Positions 1,012 to 31,166 of a stretch of 64,000 nt of DNA are shown one piece after another. The stretch lies in the NCBI GenBank assembly GCA_050743365.1, contig JBOGFI010000072.1, positions 25,667-89,666 on the forward strand, given 5' to 3'. A program made the translations under genes and the position numbers. Each line of letters begins with the position of its first letter. Position 1 is the first letter of the stretch. The notes beneath the pieces are model-generated. The model made no database searches, was not told the origin of the DNA, and saw only the letters and a program-made list of their open reading frames with translations. Source of the stretch: Acidimicrobiia bacterium (lineage in GTDB: Bacteria > Actinomycetota > Acidimicrobiia > IMCC26256 > JACDBD01).

Positions 1012-1018
1012 CGCGCCG

Positions 1019-2056: not shown

Positions 2057-2066
2057 GGGTCCTTCC

Positions 2067-3275: not shown

Positions 3276-3317
3276 TGCATAGCAGTCTCGCCGCCAAACC
3301 GGGTCCCGGGAAGAGTG

Positions 3318-4508: not shown

Positions 4509-4512
4509 AGCG

Positions 4513-7475: not shown

Positions 7476-7498
7476 TCTCCGCCGCCCACGAGGGAGGC

Positions 7499-8272: not shown

Positions 8273-8292
8273 GTCCAGGAGCCTGATGACAC

Positions 8293-9435: not shown

Positions 9436-9438
9436 TCC

Positions 9439-10155
9439 GTGGGAGCACGCATCGAGCGGCTCGACTGGGACAGTGCCTTCTTCGGCGTACCGATCGTGCG
9501 GGTGCGGTCCGACGCGTCTGACGACCTCGATGCCGTCGCCCGCGAGGCGGATGCCGACGACGTGGCTTGCACGTACTTGATGACGGAGCCACCCTCGATC
9601 GGCGGCGCGGGCGCGCCCGAGCAGGCAGGGTTCTTCCTCGTCGACGTGCAACTCGAGCTTGTCCGCTCACTTCAGGACGCGATTGCCCACGACCACGCCC
9701 CGGTTCGGGCCGGGAGGCCCGCGGACGCCGCCGGACTCGACCCGGTACTCGACGAGCTGGCGCCCTGGAGTCGATTCGCCGTCGATCCCGGTTTCGGTCT
9801 CGCGGCCGCGCGCCGCTTGTACGGGGCGTGGCTCGAGCGCGCCCTTCGTCACGAGGACGAGCTCGTGCTCGTCGCCGAACACCACGAGCAGCCCATCGGG
9901 TTTGTTACGTGCGCATTCGACCCGGAGCCCACCATCGGTCTCATCGGCACGACCGAATCCGGGCGCGGGACCGGGAAGGCGCTGTTCGCCGGCGTCGTGG
10001 CTAGGGCGCGCGAACACCGCGAAACCCGCTCGCTGCACGTCCGTACCCAGGCGCGGAACGTCCGCGCGCTCAGCTACTACGCGCGAGTCGGGTTCGCTGT
10101 CACCGCCGCGCAGTACGTGTACCACCGTTGGCACGACGAAGGCCCTCGACCTTGA
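9439..10155 (+). CDS. GNAT N-acetyltransferase, WecD (dTDP-fucosamine acetyltransferase)-like
   Basis: The N-terminal LDWDSAFFGVPIVRV matches, from memory, the WecD LxWxxxFFG pattern. The C-terminal GNAT core is GRGTGKALF. Confidence 0.7.
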   Translation: MGARIERLDWDSAFFGVPIVRVRSDASDDLDAVAREADADDVACTYLMTEPPSIGGAGAPEQAGFFLVDVQLELVRSLQDAIAHDHAPVRAGRPADAAGLDPVLDELAPWSRFAVDPGFGLAAARRLYGAWLERALRHEDELVLVAEHHEQPIGFVTCAFDPEPTIGLIGTTESGRGTGKALFAGVVARAREHRETRSLHVRTQARNVRALSYYARVGFAVTAAQYVYHRWHDEGPRP

Positions 10156-12823: not shown

Positions 12824-13764
12824 GCGAGCGCGTCAGCATCGTCATCGTCAACTGGAACGGGGCCGAGGACCTCGAGGTGGCGCTCCCGTCATTGAGAGCG
12901 CAGTCGTATCCCGATCTCGAGATCGTCGTCGCGGACAACGGAAGCATCGACGATTCCGAGCAGGTCGCCCGCGCGCACGAGGTCGTTTGGCATCCGTTGG
13001 GGGAGAACCGCGGCCTCGCTCCCGCGCTCAACGAGGGCGCCCGCCGCGCGCGCGGTGACGTGTTGCTGTTCCTCAACAACGACATGCGCTTCGCGCCAGA
13101 CTACGTCGAGCGCGCCGTGGAGGTCCTCCTCTCGGATCGGGACATTGCGGCGGTCGGCACCTGCCAGCTCGACTGGGACGGCAACGTCGGCGTCCACGAG
13201 CGCACTCGGCTCCGACCCGCGCGTTGGCCGCGTGGTGACGTTCCCGGTTGGGAGTTCGCCCAGGAACCGGCGTCAGCGCCCTGCGACTGCCTCTTCGCGT
13301 CCGCCGCCGACCTTCTCATCCGCCGAGTCGACTTCGAAGCGCTCGGAGGCTGGGACGATGCCTTCACGCTGAGCTGGGAGGACGTGGACCTCTGCTGGCG
13401 GATCTGGGCAGCTGGACACCGCGTCGTCCACATCCCGGATGCCATTTGCTGGCACCGCGTTGCCGCTGCCAGCACCGCGACCGACGATGGCTCTGACGCG
13501 CGCCTGCACGGGACGCTCTACGGCCGCTTGCGATTCGCCTGGAAGCACTTGCCTGCGGCGTCCCTGGTCGTGCTGCACCTGCTGCTCATCGCGGGGATCG
13601 TCACTGACATGGTGCGTAGCCGATCCGTGGAGCGTCGCGCTCGGACACACGTGCTGGGTCGAGTCATGCGCGAGCTTCCCAAGCTTGTGCGCGTCCGCCG
13701 CGAGCACGCCCGACCAGCTGGCCGGAGCCGCCGCGCCTTCCTGCGTCGGCTCGGGGCCATCTGA
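12820..13764 (+). CDS. Glycosyltransferase family 2
   Basis: GTGA overlap at 12820-12823. The N-terminus is VSIVIVNWNGAEDLEVALPSLRAQSYPDLEIVVADNGSIDDS, and a DxD-like LNNDM motif is present. Confidence 0.85.
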   Translation: MSERVSIVIVNWNGAEDLEVALPSLRAQSYPDLEIVVADNGSIDDSEQVARAHEVVWHPLGENRGLAPALNEGARRARGDVLLFLNNDMRFAPDYVERAVEVLLSDRDIAAVGTCQLDWDGNVGVHERTRLRPARWPRGDVPGWEFAQEPASAPCDCLFASAADLLIRRVDFEALGGWDDAFTLSWEDVDLCWRIWAAGHRVVHIPDAICWHRVAAASTATDDGSDARLHGTLYGRLRFAWKHLPAASLVVLHLLLIAGIVTDMVRSRSVERRARTHVLGRVMRELPKLVRVRREHARPAGRSRRAFLRRLGAI

Positions 13765-13775
13765 CAACCGACGCG

Positions 13776-14885
13776 ATGCGCGTCCTCGTCAACGCCACGA
13801 GATCGGAGGCTGACCGCATCGGCGGCGACTTCACGTTCGTGCGGACGGTGCTCGACCTCGACGCCGCCGGGCTCGACATCGTCCCGGTGCCCGAGTCCAC
13901 CGAGCGCTCGGTCAGCGAGCGCGTCGCGCGGCTCGCGTGGCGCGCCTCGACGAGCTGTCTCCCACGCGCGCTACGCCGATCAGCGTTTCGCGCGGCGCGA
14001 CGGCTCCCGATCTCACGTGCCGCGCTCGACGTGACCGCGCCCGACGTGGTGTTCTCCCACCTCTCCTTCCCACGATTGCCGCGTGACGCGAACGTGCCGA
14101 TCGTCTGGAGCTCACAGGGGATCTCGCCGGCGCGCTACTACCGGATCACCAGCGGCGGTCGTTTGCGCCTCGCCGACGTAGTCCAGCTCTACCGCACGCT
14201 TGGACCGCGTGCATCCGCGCTGCTCGTCTGGACCGAGACCGAGGCGCGCTTGTTGTGCGAGCTCGTGCCGACGCTCGCAAACCGAGTCACCGTCGTGCAC
14301 CCGCCGGTCGACATCGCCGACGAGCCGATCGACAAGCCTTCCCGCCAGAACGGCACGGTCAGACTCCTCTTCGTCGGTACGCGTGCAATCGCCAAGGGAC
14401 TCCCCGAGGCTGTCGAGGCGTTCCAGCTCCTTCGTGGTCGTCATGCTCGCGTCGAGATGGACGTCGTCACGCGTGCGCCCGGTTGGCTCTCCCCCACGCT
14501 TCACGAGACCACCGGTCTGACGACGAACGAGATCGCCCCCGGCCTCGCGGTGCAGCTCATGCGAAACGCCGACGTGCTCGTCTTCCCGAGCTATGACGAC
14601 ACCTACGGGCTCGTCGCGGCCGAGGCCATGGCCAATGGCTGCGCAGTCGTCGCATTCGACGCCGAGCCCCTGCCAGAGGTCGTTCCCGATGGCGAAGCGG
14701 GCCTGATCGTACGAACCGGCGGGACCGATGCACTTGCCGACGCGCTCGACCGACTCGTCTCCGACGAGGCGCTGCTCCGGCGACTTCAAGCAGGCGCGTG
14801 GCGGCGATGCCGGCAACGTAACCATCCCCGCGCGTTCGGCGAGCAGTTCACGGCGATCCTCGAGCAAGCGGTGGCGCAGCAGTGA
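13776..14885 (+). CDS. Glycosyltransferase family 4
   Basis: The C-terminal region FPSYDDTYGLVAAEAMANGCAVVAFDAEPLPEVVPDGEAGLIV is a GT-B signature. Confidence 0.75.
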   Translation: MRVLVNATRSEADRIGGDFTFVRTVLDLDAAGLDIVPVPESTERSVSERVARLAWRASTSCLPRALRRSAFRAARRLPISRAALDVTAPDVVFSHLSFPRLPRDANVPIVWSSQGISPARYYRITSGGRLRLADVVQLYRTLGPRASALLVWTETEARLLCELVPTLANRVTVVHPPVDIADEPIDKPSRQNGTVRLLFVGTRAIAKGLPEAVEAFQLLRGRHARVEMDVVTRAPGWLSPTLHETTGLTTNEIAPGLAVQLMRNADVLVFPSYDDTYGLVAAEAMANGCAVVAFDAEPLPEVVPDGEAGLIVRTGGTDALADALDRLVSDEALLRRLQAGAWRRCRQRNHPRAFGEQFTAILEQAVAQQ

Positions 14886-17074
14886 GCTCCCAGGCGCCCG
14901 GTACGCTTCGCCGGGTGAGCGTCGAGGCCGTCACCGCTGCGCCGGCGCAGCCACGGATCTCGGTCGTGATCCCCACCTGGAAACGGGCGGCATGGTTGGA
15001 TCGGTGCATCCGGGCGGTCGCGGAGCAGGATCCTCCACCCGCCGAGATCATCGTGGTCGGCCGGGCGGAGGACATGCAGGCGCGCGAGGTCGCTGGTCGT
15101 CTCGACGTCGAGTTCACGGTCCCGGTTTGCTGGATCGAGGTCGACAGACCCGGTCACGTCGCCCCGGTCGAGCGCGGCGTCGAGGTCGCGCGTTTCGAGC
15201 TCGTTGCGTTGATCGACGACGATGCCGTGCCCCAGCCGGGCTGGCTGCGAGCGATCGTCGCTCCCTTCGACGATCCGAGCGTCGGATGCGTCGGCGGTCG
15301 CGTCGTCGTGCCCGACGGCATTCGACCCGCCGACGAGCGTCTGGTCGTGCGCGAAGACGCCGGGACGCTGCGTTGGTACGGCAAGCTCGTCGGCAATCTC
15401 GGCGAGCTCGACCACGCCGGGGTCAGCGAGCGAGACACGGTCGTCGAGTGCAACTGGGTGTGGCGACGAAGCCTGCTCGCGGCCCTCGAGGTCGATCCCA
15501 TCGTGGACCACGACGAAGCGGCCTTCTACGGACTCGACCTCACGCTCCAGGCTCGTGCCCTCGGGTTCCGTACCCTGTACGAACCGCGTGCGCGCGTCGA
15601 CCACTACCTCGCACCGCGTGACGAGCAGCTGGTCCGTGAGGACCGTCGAGCGCGAGCACGCGCGGCGTCGCGCAACTTCACGTATCTCGCGCTCAAGCAT
15701 TTCGGTGCACTGCGCAAGGCGGCCTTCCTCTGCTGGTCGTTCCTGATTGGAGCACGCCGCCAGCCGGGGCTCGCGGCAAGCGCACTCGTGCTCGCGGAGC
15801 GTCCGGGTGCCTGGCGCGAGATCCGCGCCGCTTGGCAGGGGAAGCTGGAGGGCCTCACGGCGGCGCTCTCGACTCGACGACCGGATCTGCTGGTGTCGAG
15901 GGGGTCGACGACGAAACCGCGGATCGTCGTGTTCGACGCGTTCCCGACCCAGTTCTTCGGGCCTTACTACCGCTGGCTCACGGCATCCGAGCGCGTCGAC
16001 CTGACCGTCGTGTACTGGGAGACGGCGGAAACGGAGCACGTGATCGACCCGGAGCTCGGCCGAGCGCCGGTATTCGACATCCCAATCACCGGTGGATACC
16101 GCGACTACGTCATGCGTCGCGGGCCACGCGGCGTGCTCGACTGTTGGCGATGGACACGTCAGGCACGTGACGCCGACGCCGTGCTGCTCTCGGGCTGGGC
16201 GCGACCACGCGAGCTCACCCTCCTCGCGTTCGGCCACCTGCGTGGCCTCCCGATGCTCGTCACCAGCGACGTGACGCCGCTCTACGACGACTCCGCACGA
16301 CGACCGTCGCTCCGGCGGCGGGCACTCCGACGTCTCGTCCGCACCATCCCCGGGTTCATGGCCACCGGATCGCTGGCGCGCGAGCACTTGACGAGCCTCG
16401 GCGTTCCCGAGGACCGCATCTTCTTTCGCCCGTATGCGCCTGACAACGCCGCCTTCGCGGCCGCGACGGCGGCAGAACGCGCTGCGCGGGCCGCGCGGCG
16501 CGCCGCACTCCGCATCGCGTCCGATGCCCGGGTCGTGTTGGCGATCGCCAAGCTGGTCGAGCGAGAGGGTGTCGACGAGCTCATCGACGCGCTTGCGGCC
16601 GTTCGAACGCCTGGTCTCGTCTGCGTCGTCGTCGGCGACGGTCCGATGCAAGAGCGGCTCGAGCGCACCGTCGAACGCGACGGCACGAAGGTGCTGTTCG
16701 TCGGCTACCAGCCGTACTCGGTACTGCCGCGCTTCTACGCGCTCGCCGATCTGTTTGTCCACCCAGCCCGGCGTGAGTCGTGGGGCGTCTCGGTGAACGA
16801 GGCGATGGCGAGCGGCGTTCCGGTCGTCGTCTCGAACATGGTCGGCTCCGGCTACGACCTCGTGCGCGAAGGGGTCACCGGCTCGACCTACCCGTCAGGC
16901 GATTCGAAGGCACTGGGAGCCGCGATCGACGACTTCTTCGGCAAGTCCGACACGGAACGTGCGGCGATGGCGGCTGCTGCGCAAGAGTGGGTCGACGGGT
17001 GGAGCTTCGCTCGCGCTGCCGACGAGCTCGATCGCGCGGTCGACTTCCTCTACTCCGCGCGATCGACACGATGA
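14882..17074 (+). CDS. Two-domain glycosyltransferase (N-terminal GT2 fused to C-terminal GT4)
   Basis: GTGA overlap at 14882. The N-terminal part has ISVVIPTWKRAAWLDRCIRAV...LIDDDAVP (GT2). The C-terminal part has VVVGDGPMQERL...FVHPARRESWGVSVNEAMASGVPVVVSNMVGSGYDLVREGVTG (GT4). Confidence 0.75.
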   Translation: MSSQAPGTLRRVSVEAVTAAPAQPRISVVIPTWKRAAWLDRCIRAVAEQDPPPAEIIVVGRAEDMQAREVAGRLDVEFTVPVCWIEVDRPGHVAPVERGVEVARFELVALIDDDAVPQPGWLRAIVAPFDDPSVGCVGGRVVVPDGIRPADERLVVREDAGTLRWYGKLVGNLGELDHAGVSERDTVVECNWVWRRSLLAALEVDPIVDHDEAAFYGLDLTLQARALGFRTLYEPRARVDHYLAPRDEQLVREDRRARARAASRNFTYLALKHFGALRKAAFLCWSFLIGARRQPGLAASALVLAERPGAWREIRAAWQGKLEGLTAALSTRRPDLLVSRGSTTKPRIVVFDAFPTQFFGPYYRWLTASERVDLTVVYWETAETEHVIDPELGRAPVFDIPITGGYRDYVMRRGPRGVLDCWRWTRQARDADAVLLSGWARPRELTLLAFGHLRGLPMLVTSDVTPLYDDSARRPSLRRRALRRLVRTIPGFMATGSLAREHLTSLGVPEDRIFFRPYAPDNAAFAAATAAERAARAARRAALRIASDARVVLAIAKLVEREGVDELIDALAAVRTPGLVCVVVGDGPMQERLERTVERDGTKVLFVGYQPYSVLPRFYALADLFVHPARRESWGVSVNEAMASGVPVVVSNMVGSGYDLVREGVTGSTYPSGDSKALGAAIDDFFGKSDTERAAMAAAAQEWVDGWSFARAADELDRAVDFLYSARSTR

Positions 17075-18642
17075 CCACAGTAACGCATGCAGCACGCCGA
17101 GCTCGCACGGTTCTGGGGCCGTCCGCGATACTCGTGGCGCTCTGCGGCGCCGTGATCGGCGCCGCCGTGTCGAACTCGGCGCTCGATGCGCGATTGCGTG
17201 TGATCGTTCAGCTGCTCGCCGGCGCCATAGTGCTCGCGCTCGTCGTCCCGCTCATCCTCGGACGCTGGCGCGTGCTGCTCGGCTCCCTCTTCGCATGGCT
17301 CGTCGTCGAGGATCTCCTCCGAAAGCTCGCCGGCAACGACCTTCGCCTCTACTTCGTCAAGGACGTGATCTACCTGCTCGTGTTGATCGGGCTCGCGACC
17401 GATCCCGGCGTGCGCAGCACGTGGACGAGGGCGACCGGCCGTACCCGCTGGGCCCTGTACGCGCTGATCGGTTGGGGCCTCGCGCTCTCGGTCGCGTCGT
17501 TCTTCGAGAACCCGGTCCTGCCCGCAGTCGGCATGCGCCTCCACTTCTTGTACGTCCCGCTTGTTGTCGCCGGATTCCTCATGGCACGTGACTCGGCGCG
17601 CGTACGACGCTGGCTCGTCGGGCTCGCGACGCTCGCCGCCGCCGCGTCGATCGTCGGAATCATCCAGGCGGTCGTCGGCCCCGACTTCCTGTCACCGGGC
17701 CAGCCGACCGACCTTCAGCACCTCGAGCTCACCCGGCGGACGCTCAGTGGTCGCGAGCTCTTCCAGCCTTCGGGTCCATTCGCGGATCCCGGTCGCCTCA
17801 TCGCCGCGTCCGTGGTCGGCGTCACGGTCGCGTTCGCTGCCTTCGTCGGCTGGCGCAAGCAAGCCCGCGGTCCGATCTTGCTCGGCATCGTCTGCGCCGC
17901 GGGGACGTGGGCAGCGAGCGGGAAGGCAGGCGTGATCCTGGTCGGCACGCTCGCGCTCGCGACGATCGTGAGCCTCCGTTTCGGGTCTCGTGAGCGTCGC
18001 GTCAGGTGGGCCATGGGCACCGCAACCGTGTTGATCGTGGCGCTCGTCGCTCTGGCCGCCGCGTTCCCCGGTCTCTTCCGTGATCGCGTCGAGTACTTCG
18101 CGCAGACGCTCAGCCCGACCTCCCCCGTGAACGAATGGAGCGACCGATTCGACGCGTGGGAGTCCGACATCGCTCGGGGTATTGCGATCGGCGGGCTCCT
18201 CGGCACGGGCACCGGCCAGGAGTCGCTTGGACGCCAGTACATCTTCGGTGACGAGACCGATGAGCGCCGCCTTTCGCAAGTCGAAGGCGGTTACGCGTCG
18301 CTAGCGGTCGAATGGGGCCTTATCGGCATCGGGCTCTGGCTCGTTTGGAGCATCTCCTGGACACGTCGCCTGTGGCGATCGGGCAAGCGACTCCGGGGCA
18401 GCTCCCTCGCGTCGGCCACTTTCGTGCTTTTCGCCTGGGCGGTCATGGTGCTCTTCGTACGGTTCATGACAGGGCTGAGCTCGTGGCAGGACTACCTCCC
18501 GAACGCCTACTTCTGGTTCCTGTCGGGCGTGGTGTTCGGGCTCGCGAGCTGGTCGGGGACGCAGGCCGATGCGCAGATGGCCCGCGCGGAGCCGTCCGCT
18601 CGGATCGGCACCGCGTACCATCCGGATCCTGTCGTGAGGTAG
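17071..18642 (+). CDS. O-antigen polymerase/ligase-like (Wzy-type) polytopic membrane protein
   Basis: ATGA overlap at 17071-17074; the track ORF 16780.. is over-extended. It encodes about 523 aa with many TM segments and one larger loop. It is the last gene of the + operon. Confidence 0.7.
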   Translation: MTTVTHAARRARTVLGPSAILVALCGAVIGAAVSNSALDARLRVIVQLLAGAIVLALVVPLILGRWRVLLGSLFAWLVVEDLLRKLAGNDLRLYFVKDVIYLLVLIGLATDPGVRSTWTRATGRTRWALYALIGWGLALSVASFFENPVLPAVGMRLHFLYVPLVVAGFLMARDSARVRRWLVGLATLAAAASIVGIIQAVVGPDFLSPGQPTDLQHLELTRRTLSGRELFQPSGPFADPGRLIAASVVGVTVAFAAFVGWRKQARGPILLGIVCAAGTWAASGKAGVILVGTLALATIVSLRFGSRERRVRWAMGTATVLIVALVALAAAFPGLFRDRVEYFAQTLSPTSPVNEWSDRFDAWESDIARGIAIGGLLGTGTGQESLGRQYIFGDETDERRLSQVEGGYASLAVEWGLIGIGLWLVWSISWTRRLWRSGKRLRGSSLASATFVLFAWAVMVLFVRFMTGLSSWQDYLPNAYFWFLSGVVFGLASWSGTQADAQMARAEPSARIGTAYHPDPVVR

Positions 18643-18708
18643 GTGAGGTCGCAGACGTGATCGCCGGACCAGACCGAAACTGCACCGACGACCTCAGGGC
18701 GCGGTTCG

Positions 18709-18870
18709 TCATCGAAGGCCCGCCTCGGCGTTGGTCGCCTCGATCCGCGTGGGGTCGAGGGCCTTGCTCTGGATCACCTGAACGAAGCCGGCTTCGTTCG
18801 ACGGCTCCACCTGCACGTCGACGTCAGTGCTGTCGACGAAGCTGACCGGGCCGTCGAGGTACTTTTCCAT
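18709..18870 (-). CDS. Small acidic hypothetical protein (53 aa), below the track length cutoff
   Basis: Own translation: MEKYLDGPVSFVDSTDVDVQVEPSNEAGFVQVIQSKALDPTRIEATNAEAGLR. 47 of 53 codons end in G or C, which looks like coding sequence for this genome. The ATG lies 18 nt after the stop of the Wzc-like gene on the same strand. Confidence 0.35.
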   Translation of the reverse strand: MEKYLDGPVSFVDSTDVDVQVEPSNEAGFVQVIQSKALDPTRIEATNAEAGLR

Positions 18871-18888
18871 CACTGACCACCACGCGCC

Positions 18889-20514
18889 CTACCGGCGAGC
18901 GGCCTCCTTCTCGGCCCGCTTCGCCTCCCGCTTGCGGGTCCGGGCACTCCGCGAGCCGCGCCGCCCGTAGTAATAGCGGTAGCCATAGCCGTAGTCGACC
19001 TCGCGTGCGGTCCGGTTGAAGACCGCGCCGACGAGCCGGGCGTCGACCTGCCCGAGCTTCGCCACCGCCCGCTGGAGCCGCTTGCGCGTCGTAAAGCCCG
19101 CCATCACGACGAGCAGCGTCGCGTCCGCCCACGTGGAGACCACCGCGGCGTCGGTCACCGGGAGCACCGGCGGCGAGTCAATGATGACGGTGTCGGCCTG
19201 GGCCGCGAGCTCCTCGAGGAGGCCCTTCGTGAGCGGTGACCCCAAGAGCTCCGAGGGGTTCGGGGGAAAGGGGCCGGAGGCGAGCAAGGAGAGGTGCTCC
19301 TCGCCCGGGACCCGCTGGAGGGCGGTCGCGAGCGGCTGACGGCCCAGCAGCACGGAAGTGAAGCCCACGTCGTTGGGGAGGTCGAAGTACTCGTGGACTC
19401 GCGACCGGCGCAGGTCGAGATCCACGATCACCACGCGCTGCCCCGCCCGGGCGAGCATGGCCGCAAGGTTGGCGACCGTCGTGGTCTTGCCCTCGGCGGC
19501 GATGGGGCTCGTGACCTGGAGCGTGCGCAGCTGACGGTCGAGGCTCAGGAACTGCACCGCGGTCCGCAGCGATCGGTAGGCCTCGGCCGGTGGTGAGTTG
19601 GGGGCCGTGAGCGCGACCACCCCGGGCGACCTGGTCTTCCACTCCACCGAGGGCACGTGCCCGAGGACGGGCAACCACGTGCCGGTCGATCGGTCGAGGT
19701 CCTCCGCTGTCTTGATGGAGTCGTCGAGGTAGTCGACGACGAAGGCGAGCCCGATGCCGAGCACGAGCCCGATCCCGGCGGCCACGAGACCGTTGCGCAC
19801 GGGGTTGGGCCGCACCGGGTTCTCCGGGGCGACGGCGCGCTTCACCACCCGCGGACCGCCGCTCGCGAGCCCCGCCTCCAGGTCGAGCTCGTCGAGCTTC
19901 TGGCGGAACAGCAGCCGTTGCTCGATCAGCGCGTCGCGCTCGGCCTGGAGGCTCGCGGCGACGGCGCCGCGCTCGTCGTCGGGAGTGAACGCCACCTGGG
20001 CATCGATCTCGCCGATCCGCCGGTCGACTTCGCTGATCCGGCCCTGGATCTTCCGCGCCGCCTCCAAAACGGCCTCGGACTCCCGCTGCCGGCCGACCTC
20101 GATGTAGGCCTCGGTGTAGGCGTTGACCGCCTCTGCCGCGCCCGCGGGATCGGTGCTCTCGACGCTGATCTCGATGATGTCGGTCTCGCCGACCTGCTCG
20201 GCCGACACGTCGGGCGCGACGCCGAGCTTCTCGGCGACCGCCTCGCCGATGTCGGAGCTCTCGAAGATCCGGATCTCGGTCTCGGCGGCGTTGGGGTCGA
20301 CGGGGGCCACCTGGTCCGACAGCGGGTTGTCGCGCCGCGAGTTGAGCAGCACCTCGCCCTCGGCCCGGTAGACCTTCTCCTGCTGGAGGGTGAGCGCGAC
20401 GGCCGTGCCCACGACGGCCAGGACGACGAGTGCGACGACCCAGGCGCGGCGGCGGGCGATCCGCAGGTAGTCGAGGAGGCTCAGCTCCCGCGTCTCGCCG
20501 TTCGGGTCCGGCAT
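18889..20514 (-). CDS. Polysaccharide co-polymerase / BY-type tyrosine autokinase (Wzc-like)
   Basis: The real start is ATG at 20514 (MPDPNGETRELSLLDYLRIARRRAWVV). It has an N-terminal Wzz-like domain with a TM segment and coiled region. Walker A is SPIAAEGKTTTVANLA. The C-terminal tyrosine cluster is DYGYGYRYYYG, followed by a basic tail. Confidence 0.9.
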   Translation of the reverse strand: MPDPNGETRELSLLDYLRIARRRAWVVALVVLAVVGTAVALTLQQEKVYRAEGEVLLNSRRDNPLSDQVAPVDPNAAETEIRIFESSDIGEAVAEKLGVAPDVSAEQVGETDIIEISVESTDPAGAAEAVNAYTEAYIEVGRQRESEAVLEAARKIQGRISEVDRRIGEIDAQVAFTPDDERGAVAASLQAERDALIEQRLLFRQKLDELDLEAGLASGGPRVVKRAVAPENPVRPNPVRNGLVAAGIGLVLGIGLAFVVDYLDDSIKTAEDLDRSTGTWLPVLGHVPSVEWKTRSPGVVALTAPNSPPAEAYRSLRTAVQFLSLDRQLRTLQVTSPIAAEGKTTTVANLAAMLARAGQRVVIVDLDLRRSRVHEYFDLPNDVGFTSVLLGRQPLATALQRVPGEEHLSLLASGPFPPNPSELLGSPLTKGLLEELAAQADTVIIDSPPVLPVTDAAVVSTWADATLLVVMAGFTTRKRLQRAVAKLGQVDARLVGAVFNRTAREVDYGYGYRYYYGRRGSRSARTRKREAKRAEKEAARR

Positions 20515-20521
20515 CGACGAG

Positions 20522-20527
20522 ATCGTA
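20522..20527 (-). promoter_or_regulatory. Candidate -10 hexamer (TACGAT) 7 nt upstream of the Wzc-like ATG; possible leaderless transcript
   Basis: The minus strand reads gggTACGATctcgtcgATG. It fits TANNNT at the spacing expected for actinobacterial leaderless mRNAs. No SD is visible. Confidence 0.25.
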
Positions 20528-20576
20528 CCCGCCGCGCGAAGGCTCTCCCTGGACCGCGCCGGCCTGGGCCCCGACG

Positions 20577-20737
20577 CTAGGCCCGCACGAGCAGGAGGAT
20601 CAGCGTGTAGTGGCAGGCGCCCGCCGTGACGACCATCGCATGCCAGACCTCGTGGTAGCCGAAGACGGCCGGTCGCAGCGCGGGCCGTCCGGCAGCCAGC
20701 ATCACGGCACCGACGGTGTACATGAGGCCGCCGGCGA
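20577..20737 (-). pseudogene. 3' fragment (last 53 codons plus stop) of a hemolysin-III family gene; direct-repeat copy A
   Basis: 161 nt match 23238-23398 with 7 mismatches by my alignment. The fragment translates to ...AGGLMYTVGAVMLAAGRPALRPAVFGYHEVWHAMVVTAGACHYTLILLLVRA*. No upstream coding continuation exists. Confidence 0.8.
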
Positions 20738-20843
20738 TGCAACGCCCGCGAGTTTGATCACGTGAGACCCTTCGGTCCCAGTCGCCTCGCAGTCGGGCCT
20801 TTCACTCAGGCGGATCCCCTTAGTAACCGCCGGGAGGCACCGC

Positions 20844-21860
20844 TTACCTAGCCCTGAGTCCACCCTCGGCCACGCGTCCATCGGTCTCGGCGACCTCGAT
20901 GCGGTCACGTCCGTTCGCCTTCGCTTCGTAGAGCGCACCGTCGGCGCGCTGAAGCGTTGTCCTCGGGCTCTCGCCCTCCCGGTGCACGGCAATGCCGGCT
21001 GAAAACGTGGTGACGGCCTCATTCCACTCGTCGCGGAGGCGGCGCAGCACGTCCTGAGATCCGCTGACCCCTCCGCGCGCGAGGACCATCGCGAACTCTT
21101 CGCCGCCGTACCGCGCCACGCTGTCGCTGTCGCGAGTCACGGACCGCATGGCGTCCGCGAACTGCTGCAGTGTGTCGTCGCCCACTTGATGGCCATGGAC
21201 GTCGTTGACTCTCTTGAAGCAATCGAGGTCGACGACGACCACCGCGTCACCTGGCTGCATGGACGTCAGCGCTCGCTCGTAGCACCTGCGATTGCCGAGT
21301 GCGGTGAGAGGATCGGTCTCTGCGATGCGCTCGAGGTGATGCGTGCGTTGGCTCAAGGCGCGAGCGAGTAGCTCGCCGATCAAGCACCACATCGGGGCGG
21401 CGATCGCGAGGGCTGTGAGCCCGGAGCGCATTGCGTGACCGCTACCGATGACGTAGGACAGGACTGCGATCGGCACCATCCGCAGGGGTACACCGGGCCG
21501 GCCAACGAGGCCGATGTAGACGAAAGTAAAGCTGTACAGGGAGATGTACAGGGTAAGGACGCCCGGGGTGAGAACGCCGGCGACGGCCAGCAGCACATAC
21601 CCCATGATGGGGAGGGCGACGAGGGGCCGAGCACCCCACCGTGACCACGGCAAACGCGGAATGACGAGTCCAACCGCCAGCGCCACCAGACCCATCGTGC
21701 CGATCGTGAGTCGCGGGACGTTCGGTGGAGTCAGGGGCAAGGTGATCCAGACGATCGTCGCCGCCCCGACGAAGAGCACCGCGCCGATCCGAGCTCCTCG
21801 GACGGATTCACTTTCACCGGCACGGCCGAGCAGGAGTGCATCCAAGTACGACTGGCTCAT
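20844..21860 (-). CDS. Membrane-bound diguanylate cyclase (GGDEF)
   Basis: ATG at 21860 gives MSQSYLDALLLG and overlaps the EAL gene stop (ATGA). There are about 6 N-terminal TM segments. The motif RDSDSVARYGGEEF carries an intact GGEEF and an RxxD I-site 5 residues upstream. Confidence 0.9.
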   Translation of the reverse strand: MSQSYLDALLLGRAGESESVRGARIGAVLFVGAATIVWITLPLTPPNVPRLTIGTMGLVALAVGLVIPRLPWSRWGARPLVALPIMGYVLLAVAGVLTPGVLTLYISLYSFTFVYIGLVGRPGVPLRMVPIAVLSYVIGSGHAMRSGLTALAIAAPMWCLIGELLARALSQRTHHLERIAETDPLTALGNRRCYERALTSMQPGDAVVVVDLDCFKRVNDVHGHQVGDDTLQQFADAMRSVTRDSDSVARYGGEEFAMVLARGGVSGSQDVLRRLRDEWNEAVTTFSAGIAVHREGESPRTTLQRADGALYEAKANGRDRIEVAETDGRVAEGGLRAR

Positions 21861-23095
21861 GGGAGGCCGGGGATCCACTGATCGGTGGAGCGGCTGCGTC
21901 CCCGCCGCTGATCCTTCTGCGCTTCCAGCGCGTCGGTGAGCTCGCGAGGTGTTGAGGGCACCCCCAGGTGGAACCCTTGGCCGTAGTCGCAACGCATCGC
22001 CTTCAACAGCTCCAGCTGCGCTGCCGTCTCGATCCCTTCCGCGATCGCCGTGAGGTCGAGCGTGTGGGCGAGCAGGATGATCGTGCCGACGAAGGCCTGT
22101 CCCTGTTCGCTCTCGGTGATCCGTGCCGTGAAGGAGCGATCAAGCTTGACCGTGTGGACCGGGAAGAGGTGAACGTACGAGAGCGAGGACTGGCCGGTGC
22201 CGAAGTCGTCGATCGCCAGCCGCACCCCGAGCTCGCGAAGAGCTGTGAGCTGACGGAGGCAGAGCTCCATGTCTTCCATCACGGCGGTCTCGGTGACCTC
22301 GAAGGTCAGGTGCCCCGGATCGATGCCATGGCTGTCGATCGCTGTCCCGACGCGGGCCAGGAGCTCGGGATCGGCCAGTTCACGAGCCGACAGGTTCATC
22401 GAGACGGTGAAGCGCGGCTCATCGGTCAGCCCGCTCCACTGCACGATGTGTCGGCACACGTCGTGGAGCACGAACTCGCCGAGCTCGACGACGAGGCCCG
22501 TTGCCTCAGCCGCGGGAATGAAGTCAGCTGGAGGGACCAAGCCGCGGCTCGGGTGGCGCCAGCGGATGAGCGCCTCGGCTCCGACCACGCGGCGGCGCCG
22601 ACCCACGACGTCGAAGATCGGCTGGTAGTGCACCTCGAGCTCATGGTGCGCGAGTGCCCGGCGCAATGACCGGTCGGTGCGGGCGAACCGGAGGGCTGTG
22701 AGCCGTAGGGCACGCGGCTGATTGATGAGGAGTGCGAGCACCTGGCCGATACCGAGGAAGAACCCTGTGCGCATACCCCAGTCACTGAACACCTGCGACG
22801 TGCCGTCGGTAACGTCGAGGGGCAGCAGCGGCCCCGCGAGGAGGCCCGACACGATCGACGTGATGAACGTGCCCGCCCATCCGAAGCGCAGCGCCGCGAA
22901 GATGATCGGGATGTAGAACCAGTGCGGCGGCACAGGCCCGGCCCCGCCCAAGGCGAAGGCGATGGCCCACGAGGCTGCGAGCAGCCCGACAATTGCGCAG
23001 ACGGCGAGGCCTGCCGGCAGCTCTGCTGACACGCCTGCGACCTGCGCGGCCGTGCGCTGGCGCCAATGGAACCCGGGCGACGCTGGAGCAGCCAT
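21857..23095 (-). CDS. Membrane-bound c-di-GMP phosphodiesterase (EAL)
   Basis: ATG at 23095 is preceded by GAGGAG. N-terminal TM segments are present. The EAL-domain motifs EALIRW, MNLSAREL, FEVTE, DDFGTGQSSLSYV, KLDRSF, AEGIET and YGQGF are all present. Confidence 0.9.
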   Translation of the reverse strand: MAAPASPGFHWRQRTAAQVAGVSAELPAGLAVCAIVGLLAASWAIAFALGGAGPVPPHWFYIPIIFAALRFGWAGTFITSIVSGLLAGPLLPLDVTDGTSQVFSDWGMRTGFFLGIGQVLALLINQPRALRLTALRFARTDRSLRRALAHHELEVHYQPIFDVVGRRRRVVGAEALIRWRHPSRGLVPPADFIPAAEATGLVVELGEFVLHDVCRHIVQWSGLTDEPRFTVSMNLSARELADPELLARVGTAIDSHGIDPGHLTFEVTETAVMEDMELCLRQLTALRELGVRLAIDDFGTGQSSLSYVHLFPVHTVKLDRSFTARITESEQGQAFVGTIILLAHTLDLTAIAEGIETAAQLELLKAMRCDYGQGFHLGVPSTPRELTDALEAQKDQRRGRSRSTDQWIPGLP

Positions 23096-23237
23096 CGTGG
23101 CACTCCTCAACCTCAACGACCGCGACAGGCTCACTGCGGGATATCGTCGGATGTCGCCGGGTCTTGAGGGCGTTTTGTCGACTACGGGCCAGCCGATCGC
23201 CCCAGTGGGTACGCGATGGGCGCCCTTCCCAGCGCGT

Positions 23238-23398
23238 CTAGGCCCGCACGAGCAGGAGGATCAGCGCGTAGTGGCACGCGCCCGCCGTGACGACCATCGC
23301 ATGCCAAACCTCGTGGTAGCCGAAGACGGCCGGTCGCAGCGCGGGCCGGCCGGCAGCGAGCATCACGGCGCCGACGGTGTACATGACGCCGCCGGCGA
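23238..23398 (-). repeat. Direct-repeat copy B (intact gene 3' end) of the 161-bp hemolysin-III segment
   Basis: It matches 20577-20737. The two copies are 2661 bp apart and bracket the GGDEF and EAL genes. Confidence 0.9.
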
Positions 23399-23894
23399 GC
23401 AGCAGCCCCAGCTCGACCGGACCCAACCTGCGCAAGAGCTCGGGGGCAGCGACCACCCCGAGCCAGCCGAGGGCGAGGTACAGCGCCATGCCCACCCGGT
23501 GGAGCCGGTCGAGGCAGATGACGGTGAGGACCACGCCGGCGAGGCATCCGACCCAGGCGACCGACAGCAGCGCGATGCCCCAGGCCGGTCGCAGCACGAG
23601 CAGCGTGATGGGCGTGTACGTGCCCGCGATCAGCACGAAGATCATCGAGTGGTCGAGATGCTTCATGATGCGCTCGGCCCGGGGCGACCAGGCCCGTCGG
23701 TGGTACGCGGCGCTGGTGGCGTACACGGCTGCGAGGCTCACCGCGAAGATCGCCGCCCCCGTACGGGCCTCGGCGCCGCGGCCGGCAGCCACCAGCCCGA
23801 GGCCGGCGGGGACCGACGCCACGAACGCGAGCTGGTGCAGCCGGCCCCGCCAACGAGGCTTCGGCTTGGCGACGGCGGTCTCGACCGCGGGCAC
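23238..23894 (-). CDS. Hemolysin III / PAQR family membrane protein
   Basis: This is the C-terminal part of the artefactual 681-aa track ORF. An in-frame GTG at 23894 gives MPAVETAVAKPKPRWRGRLHQLAF, followed by 7 TM-like segments and ...FGYHEVWHAMVV. Confidence 0.85.
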   Translation of the reverse strand: MPAVETAVAKPKPRWRGRLHQLAFVASVPAGLGLVAAGRGAEARTGAAIFAVSLAAVYATSAAYHRRAWSPRAERIMKHLDHSMIFVLIAGTYTPITLLVLRPAWGIALLSVAWVGCLAGVVLTVICLDRLHRVGMALYLALGWLGVVAAPELLRRLGPVELGLLLAGGVMYTVGAVMLAAGRPALRPAVFGYHEVWHAMVVTAGACHYALILLLVRA

Positions 23895-23965: not shown

Positions 23966-25390
23966 TCAGGCCTGGATGATGACGAGCCGCTCCTCGGTCA
24001 TCTCGCGCACCGCCCAGTGCGGGCCCTCGCGGGTGTTGCCGGAATCGCGCCGGCCGCCGTAGGGCATCTGGTCGGCCCGGAACGTCGGCACCTCGTTCAC
24101 GAGCACGCCGCCGTAGTCGAGGGTGCGGGCGGCGCGCAGGGCCGTCGGCAGGTGCGACGTGAAGATGGCGGCCTGGAGCCCGTAGCGCGAGTCGTTGGCG
24201 AGCCGCAGCGCCTCGCCCACGTCGCTGTAGGCCTGCACGGCCACCACCGGGCCGAAGACCTCGAGCGCGCACACCTTCATGTCGGGCTTCACGTTGGCGA
24301 GCACCGACGGTCGGACGAACGGGCCGTCGACCCCACCCCCGGTGAGGACGTCGGCGCCCGCGGCCGCGGCCTCGTCGACCCACGAGACGACCCGGTCGCG
24401 TTCCGCGGTCGAGATCAGCGACGACACGTCGGTGTCCTCGGCCAGCGGGTCGCCCAGCTTCAGGGCCTCGACTTTGGGGACCAGGGCGTCGAGGAACGGC
24501 TCGACGATCGACTCGTGGGCGTAGACGCGCTGGGTGGAGATGCACGACTGGCCGGCGTGGCTGTACCCGGCCACGGAGATCTTCCCGGCGGCCGTCGCGT
24601 AGTCGGCGTCGGGCTCGAGGATCACGGGGGCGTTGTTGCCCAGCTCGAGGCCGACCTTCTTGCGGGGGGCGCGTGCCTTGATGCCCCAGCCCACGTCGGG
24701 CGAGCCGGTGAACGTGATCATGGCGACGTCGGGATGGTCGACGAGGGCGTTGCCGACGGTGCCGCCGCCGCCGGTGACCACGTTGAGCCAACCGGACCGC
24801 AGTCCGCACTCGTCGAGCAGGAGATCGGCGAGCGCAAGGGCTGACAGCGGCGTCTGCGACGCCGGCTTGAGCACCACCGGGCAACCGGCCGCGATCGCGG
24901 GCGCGACCTTGTGCGCCACCAGGTTGAGCGGGAAGTTGAACGGGCTGATGGCGCCGACGACGCCGATGGGTACCCGCAGGGTGAACGCGAGCTTGCCCGC
25001 CCCGGCGTCGCTGCCCTCCATGGGGACGAGGTCGCCGGCCAGCGTGCGCGCCTCGATCGCCGCGAACGTGAAGGTGGAGACGGCCCGCTGGGCCTCGACG
25101 CGTGCCGTCTTGATCGGCTTGGCGGCCTCGGCGGCGATGATCCGGGCGAAGTCCTCGGTACGCTCTGCGAGCAGCCCGGCGGCGCGCTCGAGCACCTCGG
25201 CCCGCTCCCACGCCGCCGGCGCGCCGGCGGCGAGCACGTCGCGGGCCGCCTCGACCGCCCGGTCGACCTCGGCCGACCCGCACGCCGGCACCCGGCCCAG
25301 CTCGGCGCCGTCGTAGGGCGACTCGACCGCGATGGTGCCCCCGGTGGTGACCCGCTCGCCGCCGATGGGGAGGGTGCGAGGCTCGATCAT
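23966..25390 (-). CDS. NAD(P)-dependent aldehyde dehydrogenase
   Basis: ATG at 25390 gives MIEPRTLPIGGERV and is preceded by GGGAG. The motifs are FTGSPDVG, LELGNNAP and the catalytic-Cys region HAGQSCISTQR. Confidence 0.9.
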   Translation of the reverse strand: MIEPRTLPIGGERVTTGGTIAVESPYDGAELGRVPACGSAEVDRAVEAARDVLAAGAPAAWERAEVLERAAGLLAERTEDFARIIAAEAAKPIKTARVEAQRAVSTFTFAAIEARTLAGDLVPMEGSDAGAGKLAFTLRVPIGVVGAISPFNFPLNLVAHKVAPAIAAGCPVVLKPASQTPLSALALADLLLDECGLRSGWLNVVTGGGGTVGNALVDHPDVAMITFTGSPDVGWGIKARAPRKKVGLELGNNAPVILEPDADYATAAGKISVAGYSHAGQSCISTQRVYAHESIVEPFLDALVPKVEALKLGDPLAEDTDVSSLISTAERDRVVSWVDEAAAAGADVLTGGGVDGPFVRPSVLANVKPDMKVCALEVFGPVVAVQAYSDVGEALRLANDSRYGLQAAIFTSHLPTALRAARTLDYGGVLVNEVPTFRADQMPYGGRRDSGNTREGPHWAVREMTEERLVIIQA

Positions 25391-25463
25391 CGCGGCTCCC
25401 TGGCTCGTTCGCACGACGTCGTCAGCCTTCCACACCGCCGGTCGGGCTATTCCGGGAGCAGCG

Positions 25464-26631
25464 CTAGGCAACCACCTTCAGTAGCAGCTCCTCGACCCGT
25501 TGTGCCGACGAGTTCCAGTTCAGGCGGGATTCGAACTCGTCGAACGACGAGAGGGCCAACCGCTCGTACGCGTCACGGTCCAGGAACACGCGGGCGACGT
25601 ACTCGCAGTAGTCGGTCGCGGGCGCGTCCTTCGGGAAGCGCTGGCCGTTTCGCCCGTTGGCGACCAACGACGAGACGCCGCCGACATCGGTCACGATCGA
25701 CGGCACTCCGAACGAGCTGGCTTCGGCGCACACCGTAGGTGTCGCATCTGCCGTCGTGGGGAGCACGAGGAAGTGCGCCTCCTGCATCAGGCGATCGAAT
25801 CGTTCCGCTCCTTCGGCGGTCGACTTCGCGATATTGCCGTGCAGGGTCACGCAGTCGGGGAGCGGCCGGTGGCGCGATCTCGGACTGGCTCCGATGACTG
25901 CCAGCTCGGTGCGCAGTCCCTGTTGGTTGAGCAGCCATCTCGACCGCGGTGTCGCCGCCCTTTCTCTCCCAGTCGCTGCTGATGAAGATCAGACGGCAAG
26001 TCGTTCGAGACCTCAGCGCGACGAGACGCTCAACGTCACGGGCAGTCCGCTGGCAATCGATGTTGGCGCCGAAGGGCACTACCGCCACTCGTGTCGGATC
26101 GATCGCGTAATGGTCGACCGCACCCTTAGCCGCCCATTCCGAGGAATAGATCGCCAGGGTGCACCGGCTGAGCGCCGCCGTGTCGTTGGCGAGGCCGTCG
26201 CGGATGGTGGCGTCCGCGAGCTTGGCCTTCGAGTCGGAATAGACCTCGATCGTGCTGGCAAACGTCGCGTCGGTCCAGATCACGATGGGCTGATCGCAGT
26301 CGAGATAGGCGACGGGCTGCGACCCCTGGCTCATGGGGCTCAGTACGACCTCGGCGTCCGTCCGGCGTAGCTGGCTCGAGATCTGGCGAGCGAAATCCCT
26401 GACGAGGAACCGATCGCGCTTGGCGTCGTAGCGCAGGCGCGAGGAAGCAAGGTGCTCGTGGTAGAGCTTCCTCGCGAGCACCAGGGACATGACAGGCCTT
26501 CGGCGGCTGAGCGACAAGAACTCGAGCGGGAGGCGCCGATGCTGCAGCGCTCGCATCATGTAGTGGAGTCGCCCACCGAACGCGTCGGGATCCGTGAGGT
26601 CGTGCTGACTCACGCACGCGACCTTGAGCAC
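25464..26631 (-). pseudogene. Glycosyltransferase family 4, disrupted by a +1 frameshift near 25925-25945
   Basis: The N-terminal frame (track ORF 25573..26631) is convincing up to ...RLIFISSDWERKGGDTAVEMAAQ and then turns to junk. The continuation LNQQGLRTELAVIGASPRSRHRPLPDCVTLHGNIAKSTAEGAERFDRLMQEAHFLVLPT...FGVPSIVTDVGGVSSLV lies in the +1 frame and ends at 25464. Confidence 0.75.
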
Positions 26632-26777
26632 CGCGCCCTCTCACCCTCCCTGTTGCCGCAACTTGGCACCACGTCCGGCGGATTGCCTCGAGGCCCGGTC
26701 ACGCCCGGCCGCACTCTATGGCGATTGTGCCCCCACGCGTGGACGGCCGTTCTCCGAGTCGCTCCTGGGTCCCCGAC

Positions 26778-26809
26778 TCAGCGCCCCCGGCAGTCAGCGC
26801 CCCCGGCAG
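26778..26809 (-). repeat. Perfect 2 x 16-nt tandem direct repeat (plus strand tcagcgcccccggcag) covering the last 12 nt of tRNA-Arg plus 4 nt of trailer
   Basis: Read directly: 26778-26793 is identical to 26794-26809. The second copy is part of the tRNA 3' end. Confidence 0.9.
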
Positions 26810-26869
26810 GATTCGAACCTGCGCACACGGCTCCGGAGGCCGATGCTCTATCCCCTGAGCTACGGGGGC
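26798..26869 (-). tRNA. tRNA-Arg (anticodon CCG)
   Basis: The minus strand reads GCCCCCG TA GCTC AGGGGATA GAGC A TCGGC CTCCGGA GCCGT GTGC GCAGG TTCGAAT CCTGC CGGGGGC G. This folds as a cloverleaf with a 7-bp acceptor stem, a GTTCGAAT T-loop and anticodon loop CU-CCG-GA. There is one U-U mismatch at the top of the anticodon stem, and CCA is not encoded. Confidence 0.85.
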
Positions 26870-30383: not shown

Positions 30384-31166
30384 TCAGCACCCGTCACTAC
30401 GATCCGTTCGACGGCCCTTCGCCTCGTACAACCGCTGATCCGCCAGGCGGAACAGTGCTCCCAGCTCGTCGGCTTCCCGCGGACACAAAGCGTGACCATA
30501 CGAGAATGCGAGGCCCGTGTCACGCTCGGGAGCTCCGGCTTCCCGGACCCGGGCCAGGATCCCGGGCACGTTGGTGGCGCTCGTGTCCGGCAGGATCAGC
30601 CCGAACTCGTCGCCGCCGATGCGGGCGGCATCATCGCCGTAGCGGAGCACGTGCCCGAGACGGTCCGCCAGCGCCCGCAGCGCGGCGTCGCCGGCGGCGT
30701 GCCCGTCGCGGTCGTTGAGCGCCTTGAGCCCGTCGACGTCGAGGATCACGAGCGTGAACTGCCACCCATACCGGCAGCTGCGCGCGATGGCGTTCTCGAG
30801 CAGGCGGTCGAAGCTGCGCCGGTCGTAGAGCCCGGTCAGCGGGTCGTGCCCGGCCTCGTAGCGGAGGAGATCGAGGCGGAGCGCCAGCACGGCGAGGTTC
30901 GTGATCAGATGCCCGTCGAAAGAGCTCGAATCCAGCGGCGGATCGGTGTAGAAGCCGGTACCCGCCAGCCTGAGGCGGCCCTCGTCGTCCCTCGGATGGC
31001 GTCCGGCGCGAAACACCTGCCGGCCGAGCCCGGCCTCGTCGACGACCACGGCCGCGTCCCTGAGCCCGAAGTGCCTCACGACGGCGTCGAGCGCGCGGTA
31101 GATGAGCCCGATGCCAGACTCACTCGTCGCGAGCTTGGCGACGAGGTCGGATCCGAAGTCAGCCAT
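30384..31166 (-). CDS. Cytoplasmic diguanylate cyclase (GGDEF) with a short N-terminal sensor-like region
   Basis: The real start is ATG at 31166 (MADFGSDLVAKL); the rest of the 797-aa track ORF is antisense to argS. Motifs are DPLTGLYDRRSF and LRYGDDAARIGGDEF, giving an intact GGDEF with RxxD 5 residues upstream. Confidence 0.85.
   Translation of the reverse strand: MADFGSDLVAKLATSESGIGLIYRALDAVVRHFGLRDAAVVVDEAGLGRQVFRAGRHPRDDEGRLRLAGTGFYTDPPLDSSSFDGHLITNLAVLALRLDLLRYEAGHDPLTGLYDRRSFDRLLENAIARSCRYGWQFTLVILDVDGLKALNDRDGHAAGDAALRALADRLGHVLRYGDDAARIGGDEFGLILPDTSATNVPGILARVREAGAPERDTGLAFSYGHALCPREADELGALFRLADQRLYEAKGRRTDRSDGC

Follow-up and report, generated by a model that had tools for sequence, protein, structure and literature searches.

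How does the 3′ end of a hemolysin III gene come to stand a second time, as an orphan fragment, directly in front of a polysaccharide kinase gene? The question is raised by a 64-kb stretch of DNA, here called the window, from a metagenome-assembled genome (MAG) of an uncultured soil Acidimicrobiia lineage. The genes in question are all on the minus strand, and coordinates are those of the window. An intact hemolysin III family gene (hlyIII) is followed by two genes of cyclic di-GMP (c-di-GMP) metabolism, for an EAL phosphodiesterase and a GGDEF diguanylate cyclase. Behind this pair lies a second copy of the last 161 nt of hlyIII and then wzc, the first gene of a strain-specific polysaccharide block. 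The 161-nt copy is probably a scar of recombination that joined two versions of a hypervariable polysaccharide locus, and it stands at the left border of this locus. Judged from the gene order of relatives, the EAL–GGDEF pair is an old resident next to hlyIII and not newly inserted cargo. The polysaccharide block is the variable part, which corrects the direction of inference in a preliminary description of this DNA, where a circular molecule was proposed to have inserted the pair.

The hlyIII repeat

A repeat finder returned 20577–20737 and 23238–23398 as the top repeat of an 8-kb region, with 161 nt, 96% identity and a spacing of 2661 nt. It lies far beyond chance, because the next best direct repeats in the region have at most 34 nt at about 70% identity. 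Alignment gave a gap-free direct repeat with 154 of 161 positions identical, bracketing 2,500 nt, and confirmed the duplication of the hemolysin III 3′ end noticed earlier. In the alignment with flanks, one edge of the homology is exactly the TAG stop codon of hlyIII. The other edge is TCGCCGGCGG (20737/23398), past which the copies show no more than some 10 nt of questionable, gapped similarity. From the intact gene towards wzc, the segment contains:

23238–23894, minus strand: hlyIII, encoding a PAQR (TrhA-like) protein of 218 aa with a GTG start (PF03006); last gene of the conserved left flank
23238–23398, minus strand: repeat copy B, the last 161 nt of the intact hlyIII including the TAG stop
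23096–23237, minus strand: hlyIII–EAL intergenic region, 142 nt; clade-ancestral, 93.7% identical in the outgroup contig L173, where it also directly follows the TAG
21857–23095, minus strand: EAL phosphodiesterase, 412 aa with a hydrophobic N-terminal half (Pfam PF00563, E = 8.6e-73)
20844–21860, minus strand: GGDEF diguanylate cyclase, 338 aa with a hydrophobic N-terminal half (Pfam PF00990, E = 1.7e-31)
20738–20843, minus strand: spacer of 106 nt from the GGDEF stop to the hlyIII fragment; its 3′ edge, 20738/20737, is a non-homologous, illegitimate junction
20577–20737, minus strand: repeat copy A, 52 codons and the stop from the 3′ end of a second hlyIII allele; an orphaned pseudogene remnant
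20515–20576, minus strand: intergenic region of 62 nt between the TAG of the fragment and the wzc start, with no special fold

The assignment of hlyIII to its family rests on precomputed PF03006 matches. Copy A fails membership of the HlyIII/PAQR family, as it holds only the last 52 codons and no full seven-helix PF03006 domain in an intact open reading frame (ORF). Gene callers annotated it as an ORF of 48 aa with a weak HlyIII/PF03006 match or as an ORF of 71 aa; the latter is recorded as 'hemolysin III family protein' (MGH9013435.1). Read further upstream from copy A, the hlyIII frame meets stops, one of them 20 codons before the repeat, and no homology extends beyond. Copy A is therefore not part of a longer intact paralogue, in agreement with the delimitation in the preliminary description.

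A check mismatch by mismatch bore out the reported number of seven differences and their classes. Five are synonymous third-position changes (20709/23370, 20697/23358, 20688/23349, 20646/23307 and 20616/23277). Two are non-synonymous: 20726/23387 (L/V) and 20606/23267 (T/A). Private variants of copy A are located at 20726 (C), 20697 (G), 20688 (A) and 20616 (C). Copy A has 7–9 differences to every conspecific hlyIII allele and 18 to L173. It thus falls within the allelic diversity of the species, which points to a conspecific hlyIII and not to a distant donor as the source of the fragment.

The predominance of synonymous changes had been read as a sign that the second copy came from a functional orthologue. 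This argument is weak. The synonymous excess has P = 0.022 against free drift of both copies and P = 0.40 under an in-place duplication with one copy functional. The 'mostly synonymous' pattern has little power and also fits one copy under constraint with the other drifting freely. Polarisation with L173 placed six changes on copy A (4/6 synonymous) and one on copy B. For copy A, the pattern has P of about 0.06 under free decay (a binomial estimate using the site fractions from the synonymous test).

The repeat is genuine, and so are its two junctions, which recur in three assemblies made independently from the same sample. Over 12 kb that include both copies, a second MAG assembly (GCA_975305365.1) matches the window at 100% identity. 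On a 96,302-nt contig, the accessions given by the Prokaryotic Genome Annotation Pipeline are consecutive for hlyIII, EAL, GGDEF and the fragment (MGH9013438 down to MGH9013435). Two Logan contigs from run SRR27067773 match the window at 100% identity. One (L180) covers 22202–20658 with GGDEF, the spacer, the junction and 80 nt of copy A. The other (L178) covers 20676–18034 with the 3′ part of copy A and wzc, and links copy-A-specific variants to wzc. An assembly or binning artefact that mixed two strains has a negligible probability. It would fit the source, which is a metagenome-assembled genome, and the break of the Logan contigs within a 41-nt stretch identical in both copies, although such a break is expected for a true repeat. 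It is contradicted by the junction 20738/20737, which shares no k-mer with hlyIII and yet is present in the independent contig L180, by the joining of copy-A variants to wzc in L178, by the agreement of the two MAG assemblies and by the consecutive accessions.

Gene order in relatives and the variable locus

About 180 hlyIII loci were compared in all, with 161 from species-representative genomes and Joint Genome Institute (JGI) metagenomes and a further 10 contigs of close relatives. The searches of species-representative genomes and JGI metagenomes returned relatives of at most 71% identity only. These distant relatives share at most the ALDH–hlyIII synteny, ALDH being the aldehyde dehydrogenase gene upstream of hlyIII (L001, L002, L004 and L147), and are uninformative on the event; none has EAL, GGDEF or Wzc near hlyIII. 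A 90%-identity cluster of 12 hlyIII proteins in a large protein database comes from other metagenomes. The preliminary description predicted that relatives would offer an empty site, with ALDH, hlyIII and wzc in direct succession. This site was looked for among the approximately 180 loci and not found: in none of them, whether among the 161 surveyed or the 10 close-relative contigs, does hlyIII adjoin wzc.

The outgroup L173 (about 89% nt identity) has the order glycosyltransferase–ALDH–hlyIII–TAG–ACGCGCTGGG..., thus the same intergenic region, followed by EAL and GGDEF. Its EAL gene consists of the first ~70 codons, an internal deletion of ~975 nt and the EAL 3′ end; the contig ends inside GGDEF. 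Identities between the window and L173 are 91.9% for ALDH, 89.5% for hlyIII, 93.7% for the intergenic region, 94.4% for the EAL 5′ end and 92.8% for GGDEF. Identity is continuous across the hlyIII stop, and the pair therefore co-diverged with the flank. In the repeat region, copies A and B differ at 7 positions from each other, fewer than the 18 of copy A and the 13 of copy B to L173. The adjacency of hlyIII and the pair therefore predates the repeat.

L167–L172 and L174 belong to the same species as the window. Conspecific strains are present in the JGI samples 3300078545, 3300053671, 3300061203, 3300078366, 3300061535, 3300086684, 3300078280 and 3300065625. The left flank of L167 is 97.1–98.5% identical at the nucleotide level over 6.4 kb and includes an ALDH gene with 97.8% identity that is contiguous with hlyIII. 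Homology to the L167-type relatives and to L181, another conspecific variant, ends exactly at the hlyIII stop. In the L167 type, hlyIII is followed by relics of 76, 54 and 62 nt, an inverted epimerase gene, dinB/IMS, two glyoxalase genes and PHO4. The second relic (54–58 nt in L167–L172 and L174) is about 90% identical to the hlyIII–EAL intergenic region of the window. The third, with 62 nt, is 89% identical to the 3′ coding region of GGDEF (window 21034–20973). Both relics are colinear in all seven contigs. Together with the presence of the pair in L173, these relics mark it as the ancestral neighbour of hlyIII.

The 76-nt relic directly after the hlyIII stop (L167 6528–6603, also in L168–L172 and L174) has a different origin. 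It corresponds to the last 21 codons and the TAA of a convergent gene, reads SNPAVGASLADLGDVMKGFLV followed by the stop on the opposite strand, and has no match in the window or the island.

In L181 (192–453), the sequence behind hlyIII begins with 7 nt that L167 also has (CAGCCCC) and continues with a 176-nt relic and the glyoxalase genes; dinB/IMS is deleted. The relic stems from an island gene deep in the polysaccharide block (L162 4856–5031, 94% identical). The hlyIII end of L181 is L167-like and its right flank is window-like.

These comparisons delimit a locus with conserved, syntenic flanks among conspecific strains: ALDH–hlyIII on the left and dinB(IMS)–glyoxalase on the right. The span between the hlyIII stop and dinB/IMS is about 38.1 kb here, 1.5 kb in the L167-type strains and 0.26 kb in L181. 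The right flank resumes 20 nt past the dinB/IMS stop, with 93.6% identity to L167 and 97.2% to L181. In the window, the locus and its left flank comprise, besides the segment listed above:

23966–25471, minus strand: aldehyde dehydrogenase gene (Pfam Aldedh, E = 3.3e-142), in the conserved left flank of the variable locus
18889–20514, minus strand: wzc, encoding a Wzc-like polysaccharide tyrosine autokinase (BY-kinase) of 541 aa (Pfam Wzz, GNVR, AAA_31/CbiA)
1–18888, no single strand assigned: rest of the polysaccharide block in the window, continuing for about 15 kb beyond the window to dinB/IMS

The Wzc protein ends in a tyrosine-rich tail (YGYGYRYYYG) and is named tyrosine autokinase by NCBI. 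Its Wzz and P-loop domains and this tail upheld the earlier statement that the pair lies upstream of a Wzc-like kinase gene on the same strand. No Wzc homologue with more than 54% identity was found among 5.8 billion proteins. According to the Pfam gene tables, the block at 1–18888 encodes a Wzy-like polymerase (Wzy_C), several glycosyltransferases and a Wzx-like flippase (Polysacc_synt). An aminotransferase, an acetyltransferase, a methyltransferase, an asparagine synthase, an epimerase and the start of a carbamoyltransferase are also present. Over the 38 kb, the order begins with EAL–GGDEF, the hlyIII fragment, Wzc, the Wzy-like polymerase, glycosyltransferases, the Wzx-type flippase and sugar-modifying enzymes. 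It continues with the carbamoyltransferase and a diverged 3′ fragment of it, GT4/DUF4012, a second EAL, AbiEi/AbiEii and a response regulator. The conserved left part contains a low-molecular-weight phosphotyrosine phosphatase, a UDP-glucose dehydrogenase, a tRNA-Arg and a glycosyltransferase.

The part beyond the window was read in GCA_975305365.1, where the end of contig 197 (L175) and the start of contig 169 (L162) share an exact overlap of 13 nt (TGCTCGACGATCA). The overlap lies inside one ORF that continues across it, which identifies the two contigs as one sequence split by the assembler. Proteins from both parts are recorded on the same 96-kb contig.

The region is a hypervariable polysaccharide locus of the Wzx/Wzy/Wzc type, bounded by conserved flanks and rich in gene relics. 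Besides copy A, its scars include the 76-nt relic of the L167 type, the 176-nt island-gene relic of L181 and the carbamoyltransferase 3′ fragment. Identity to L167 is about 98% in the left flank and 93.6% in the right flank, which indicates a recombination breakpoint somewhere in the locus. Recombination has evidently shuffled this region repeatedly.

Two further observations concern the far part of the block. A second membrane EAL protein (P0001, L162 7502–8743) has 81% aa and 82% nt identity to the EAL of the window and the same orientation. It is located at the far end of the block, about 15 kb beyond the left end of the window, and is followed by AbiEi/AbiEii; the polysaccharide block is thus bracketed by EAL paralogues. 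The carbamoyltransferase fragment (L175 13297–13635) encodes 112 aa of the C-terminus, about 70% identical to residues 495–540 of the full gene upstream. It is followed by a second epimerase gene (L175 13601–14629), and both lie 1.2–2.6 kb beyond the left end of the window. By its sequence, it is another orphan 3′ fragment in the same locus.

Origin of the hlyIII fragment

The fragment is probably explained by two versions of the locus in the gene pool of the species. One would have the order hlyIII–EAL–GGDEF, the other hlyIII, 62 nt, wzc and the polysaccharide genes. A single event would have joined them, with homology on one side and an illegitimate join at 20737/20738 on the other. The wzc-led block would thereby have come to stand behind EAL–GGDEF, still carrying the last 161 nt of 'its' hlyIII. 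Copy A is then most likely a fossil of the version with wzc 62 nt behind an intact hlyIII. The 62-nt region between the fragment and wzc is unrelated to the sequence after the TAG of copy B, L167, L181 and L173, and is presumably the original hlyIII–wzc intergenic region of the lost version. The hlyIII–wzc version itself is inferred and was never observed. By analogy with loci discussed below, the mechanism would be homology-anchored illegitimate recombination.

The junction 20738/20737 is sharp and non-homologous. The 106-nt spacer next to the junction has no homology to hlyIII or to any retrieved locus. For GGDEF, orthologues of about 94% identity exist in other metagenomes (P0375 and P0376); both are intact with 333 aa and come from JGI contigs of 1.8–3.2 kb. 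The C-terminal tail of the window protein ends with …VAEGGLRAR (20844–20860) and that of these orthologues with …VAES. Given the differing tail, the rearrangement may have its breakpoint right where the GGDEF ORF ends and not just at 20737/20738.

Several points weigh against the joining of two versions. The postulated hlyIII–wzc version occurs in no database sequence searched. As the L173 contig ends inside GGDEF, the 106-nt spacer is not tied to the GGDEF side. The flank alignment gave no clear microhomology at 20737/20738. A G at repeat position 112, present in copies A and B and in no other allele, is a hint of gene conversion or of an origin within the genome. Directly at the hlyIII stop begin three different sequences: that of copy B and L173, that of copy A, and that of L167 and L181. 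Random illegitimate joins followed by selection explain this exact abutment only loosely.

The same product could have arisen in the opposite direction. In this mirror-image case, hlyIII–wzc would be resident, and an incoming linear conspecific fragment with ALDH–hlyIII–EAL–GGDEF would have recombined by homology upstream and by an illegitimate join within the resident hlyIII. The 3′ end of the resident hlyIII and wzc would have been displaced downstream, as proposed for orphan modules of type VI secretion system (T6SS) and Rhs loci. This event is unlikely, though a serious candidate. It is the same single event as in the preferred explanation, has an analogue in the literature (PMC5361080) and is in line with the different affinities of the left (about 98% to L167) and right (93.6% to L167) flanks. 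Against it, the lineage of the window would have needed a loss of the ancestral pair right at the stop codon and a later regain, and the hlyIII–wzc genome that it assumes was not found. The data do not discriminate the direction, because the left flank is L167-like (98%) and the right flank L181-like (97.2%), while L181 combines an L167-like hlyIII end with a window-like right flank. Between a wzc block that was joined on and a pair that was re-introduced from a conspecific, the balance tips slightly towards the former.

Of the recombination origin first proposed, the scar with its truncated hlyIII 3′ end stands. The delivery of the EAL–GGDEF pair as cargo of a circle is not supported. A circular DNA carrying a hlyIII 3′ fragment and EAL–GGDEF, integrated by Campbell-type single crossover into a resident ALDH–hlyIII–wzc, is improbable. 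The topology, direct repeats around the segment with a period of 2661 nt, is what a single crossover gives, and the A/B differences are mostly synonymous. The pair has a GC content of 0.64–0.68 versus 0.70–0.74 and a GC content at third codon positions (GC3) of 0.76–0.84 versus 0.90–0.94 in ALDH and wzc. The lower values were rejected as evidence for a foreign origin: other polysaccharide genes have a GC3 of 0.79–0.85, glycosyltransferase genes being similarly low, so composition does not single out the pair. An empty site is missing in every relative examined, the pair or its relics follow hlyIII in all clade members examined, and in L173 identity is continuous across the junction. The 2.66-kb segment encodes no integrase and no replication, mobilisation or transfer gene. 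It has no plasmid or phage relative; plasmid matches were generic EAL-domain hits over at most 11% of the query, and phage matches were absent. The circle would still need an illegitimate join to form and adds an unobserved element. Possibly the pair was re-introduced from a conspecific, by a circle or a linear fragment; the product would be the same.

An in-place duplication is very improbable. Unequal or illegitimate exchange between sister chromosomes would have produced a tandem of hlyIII 3′ end–EAL–GGDEF, and the second pair would later have been replaced by the wzc block. The shared G at position 112, unique to A and B, speaks for it, as does the absence from both copies of the derived G at position 157 of the L167/L174 group. 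The synonymous excess fits one constrained and one free copy (P = 0.40). Two precise events are needed, the second again exactly at the stop codon, and a perfect 2.6-kb tandem repeat would be unstable. Six changes in copy A, four of them synonymous, against one in copy B is not a free-decay pattern (P about 0.06). The joining of two locus versions remains the preferred reading of the scar.

A similar process is known from other loci. Orphaned 3′ regions in T6SS effector–immunity, Rhs and contact-dependent inhibition (CDI) loci were attributed to homology-facilitated illegitimate recombination (Kirchberger et al. 2017, PMC5361080). That article cites de Vries and Wackernagel (2002) and Prudhomme et al. 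(2002) for this type of recombination. As proposed for the locus studied here, a conserved upstream gene provides the homology anchor, a module is joined with one illegitimate end, and the truncated 3′ end of the conserved gene stands ahead of displaced downstream genes in a mosaic array. Where those loci have toxin and immunity genes as modules, the present one has a c-di-GMP pair and a polysaccharide cluster. There is one orphan fragment and not an array, the host is an uncultured member of the Acidimicrobiia, and the mechanism is a putative one.

Capsule and O-antigen loci provide the second comparison. The cps locus of Streptococcus pneumoniae lies between dexB and aliA, and the O-antigen cluster of Escherichia coli between galF and gnd. 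The locus shares with such capsule, O-antigen and exopolysaccharide loci the conserved flanks, a radically different content among conspecific strains, Wzx/Wzy/Wzc-type genes and gene remnants. It differs in its flanking genes, its lineage and the c-di-GMP pair at its border. Most sampled strains are heavily deleted here and do not carry alternative full-length clusters. In elements of the Campbell or attL–attR type, as here, a segment stands between direct repeats of a gene 3′ end, and the gene remains complete through its upstream copy. Unlike these elements, the segment has no recombinase, no empty site was found in the loci compared, and the segment is not foreign-looking. The repeats differ at 7 of 161 positions, and the bracketed genes are ancestral at the site.

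The event is of an ordinary kind and otherwise reflects ordinary bacterial genome plasticity. The fragment would document the remodelling of the border of a polysaccharide locus in an uncultured soil lineage of the Acidimicrobiia. It also indicates that a gene fragment can serve as the fossil of an arrangement, hlyIII–wzc, that is present in no database searched.

The c-di-GMP pair and its surroundings

The segment between the repeat copies carries only the EAL and GGDEF genes, and Pfam matches, gene calls and translations agreed with the previous description of this pair. The start of GGDEF overlaps the stop of EAL by 4 nt (ATGA). Both Pfam matches are full-length. In the translation of EAL, the catalytic motifs are intact: EALxR, N, ExxE, DDFGTG, KLD, EGIE and GQGF. 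EAL also has a weak, sub-threshold match to MASE1. The GGDEF motif is GGEEF and is preceded by RDSD, an RxxD I-site five residues upstream, as read in the translation. By these motifs, both enzymes look active. A further GGDEF-domain region lies about 7 kb upstream of hlyIII (window ~30393–30887, minus strand) and is 33% identical to the GGDEF of the pair.

The pair is located 329 nt upstream of wzc on the same strand, and no terminator was recognisable between them. It could thus be co-transcribed with the polysaccharide machinery and might tune it locally via c-di-GMP. Promoter and terminator scans and folding of the three intergenic pieces gave nothing above shuffled sequences, and neither support nor exclude read-through from GGDEF to wzc. 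The 106-nt spacer folds like its shuffles (z = −0.56) and has no Rfam match. The hlyIII–EAL intergenic region likewise has no Rfam match and an unremarkable fold. Rfam scans of the window and of 20400–23400 detected only a tRNA-Arg; in the spacers, neither a c-di-GMP riboswitch nor another RNA was recognised.

The intact pair occurs only in the genome with the full polysaccharide block. Conspecific strains that lack the block also lack the pair, and EAL is broken in L173. With a single such genome, this gives a weak hint that the pair serves the polysaccharide machinery.

The exact abutment of three unrelated sequences at the hlyIII stop suggests a more far-reaching idea, which is highly improbable. 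The hlyIII 3′ end would be a reusable docking site for c-di-GMP and polysaccharide modules, and the pair could be reversibly excised as a circle of 2,661 bp via the 161-nt repeats. If so, docking and excision would place wzc either directly behind hlyIII or behind the c-di-GMP pair, and would act as a recombinational switch of polysaccharide control. In a related and equally speculative reading, the ORF of 48–71 aa in the fragment would be kept as a small membrane protein that is expressed with wzc.

Two minor observations concern the conserved left part. A tRNA-Arg(CCG) gene (26797–26869, minus strand) lies between the UDP-glucose dehydrogenase and the glycosyltransferase genes; L167 has this gene as well, and it does not mark an island boundary. 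The glycosyltransferase gene beside ALDH (25461–26774, minus strand) is split into ORFs in different frames, 25464–25850 and 25573–26631. Its L167 orthologue is intact with 390 aa and aligns with two gaps, which indicates a frameshift pseudogene or a sequencing error.

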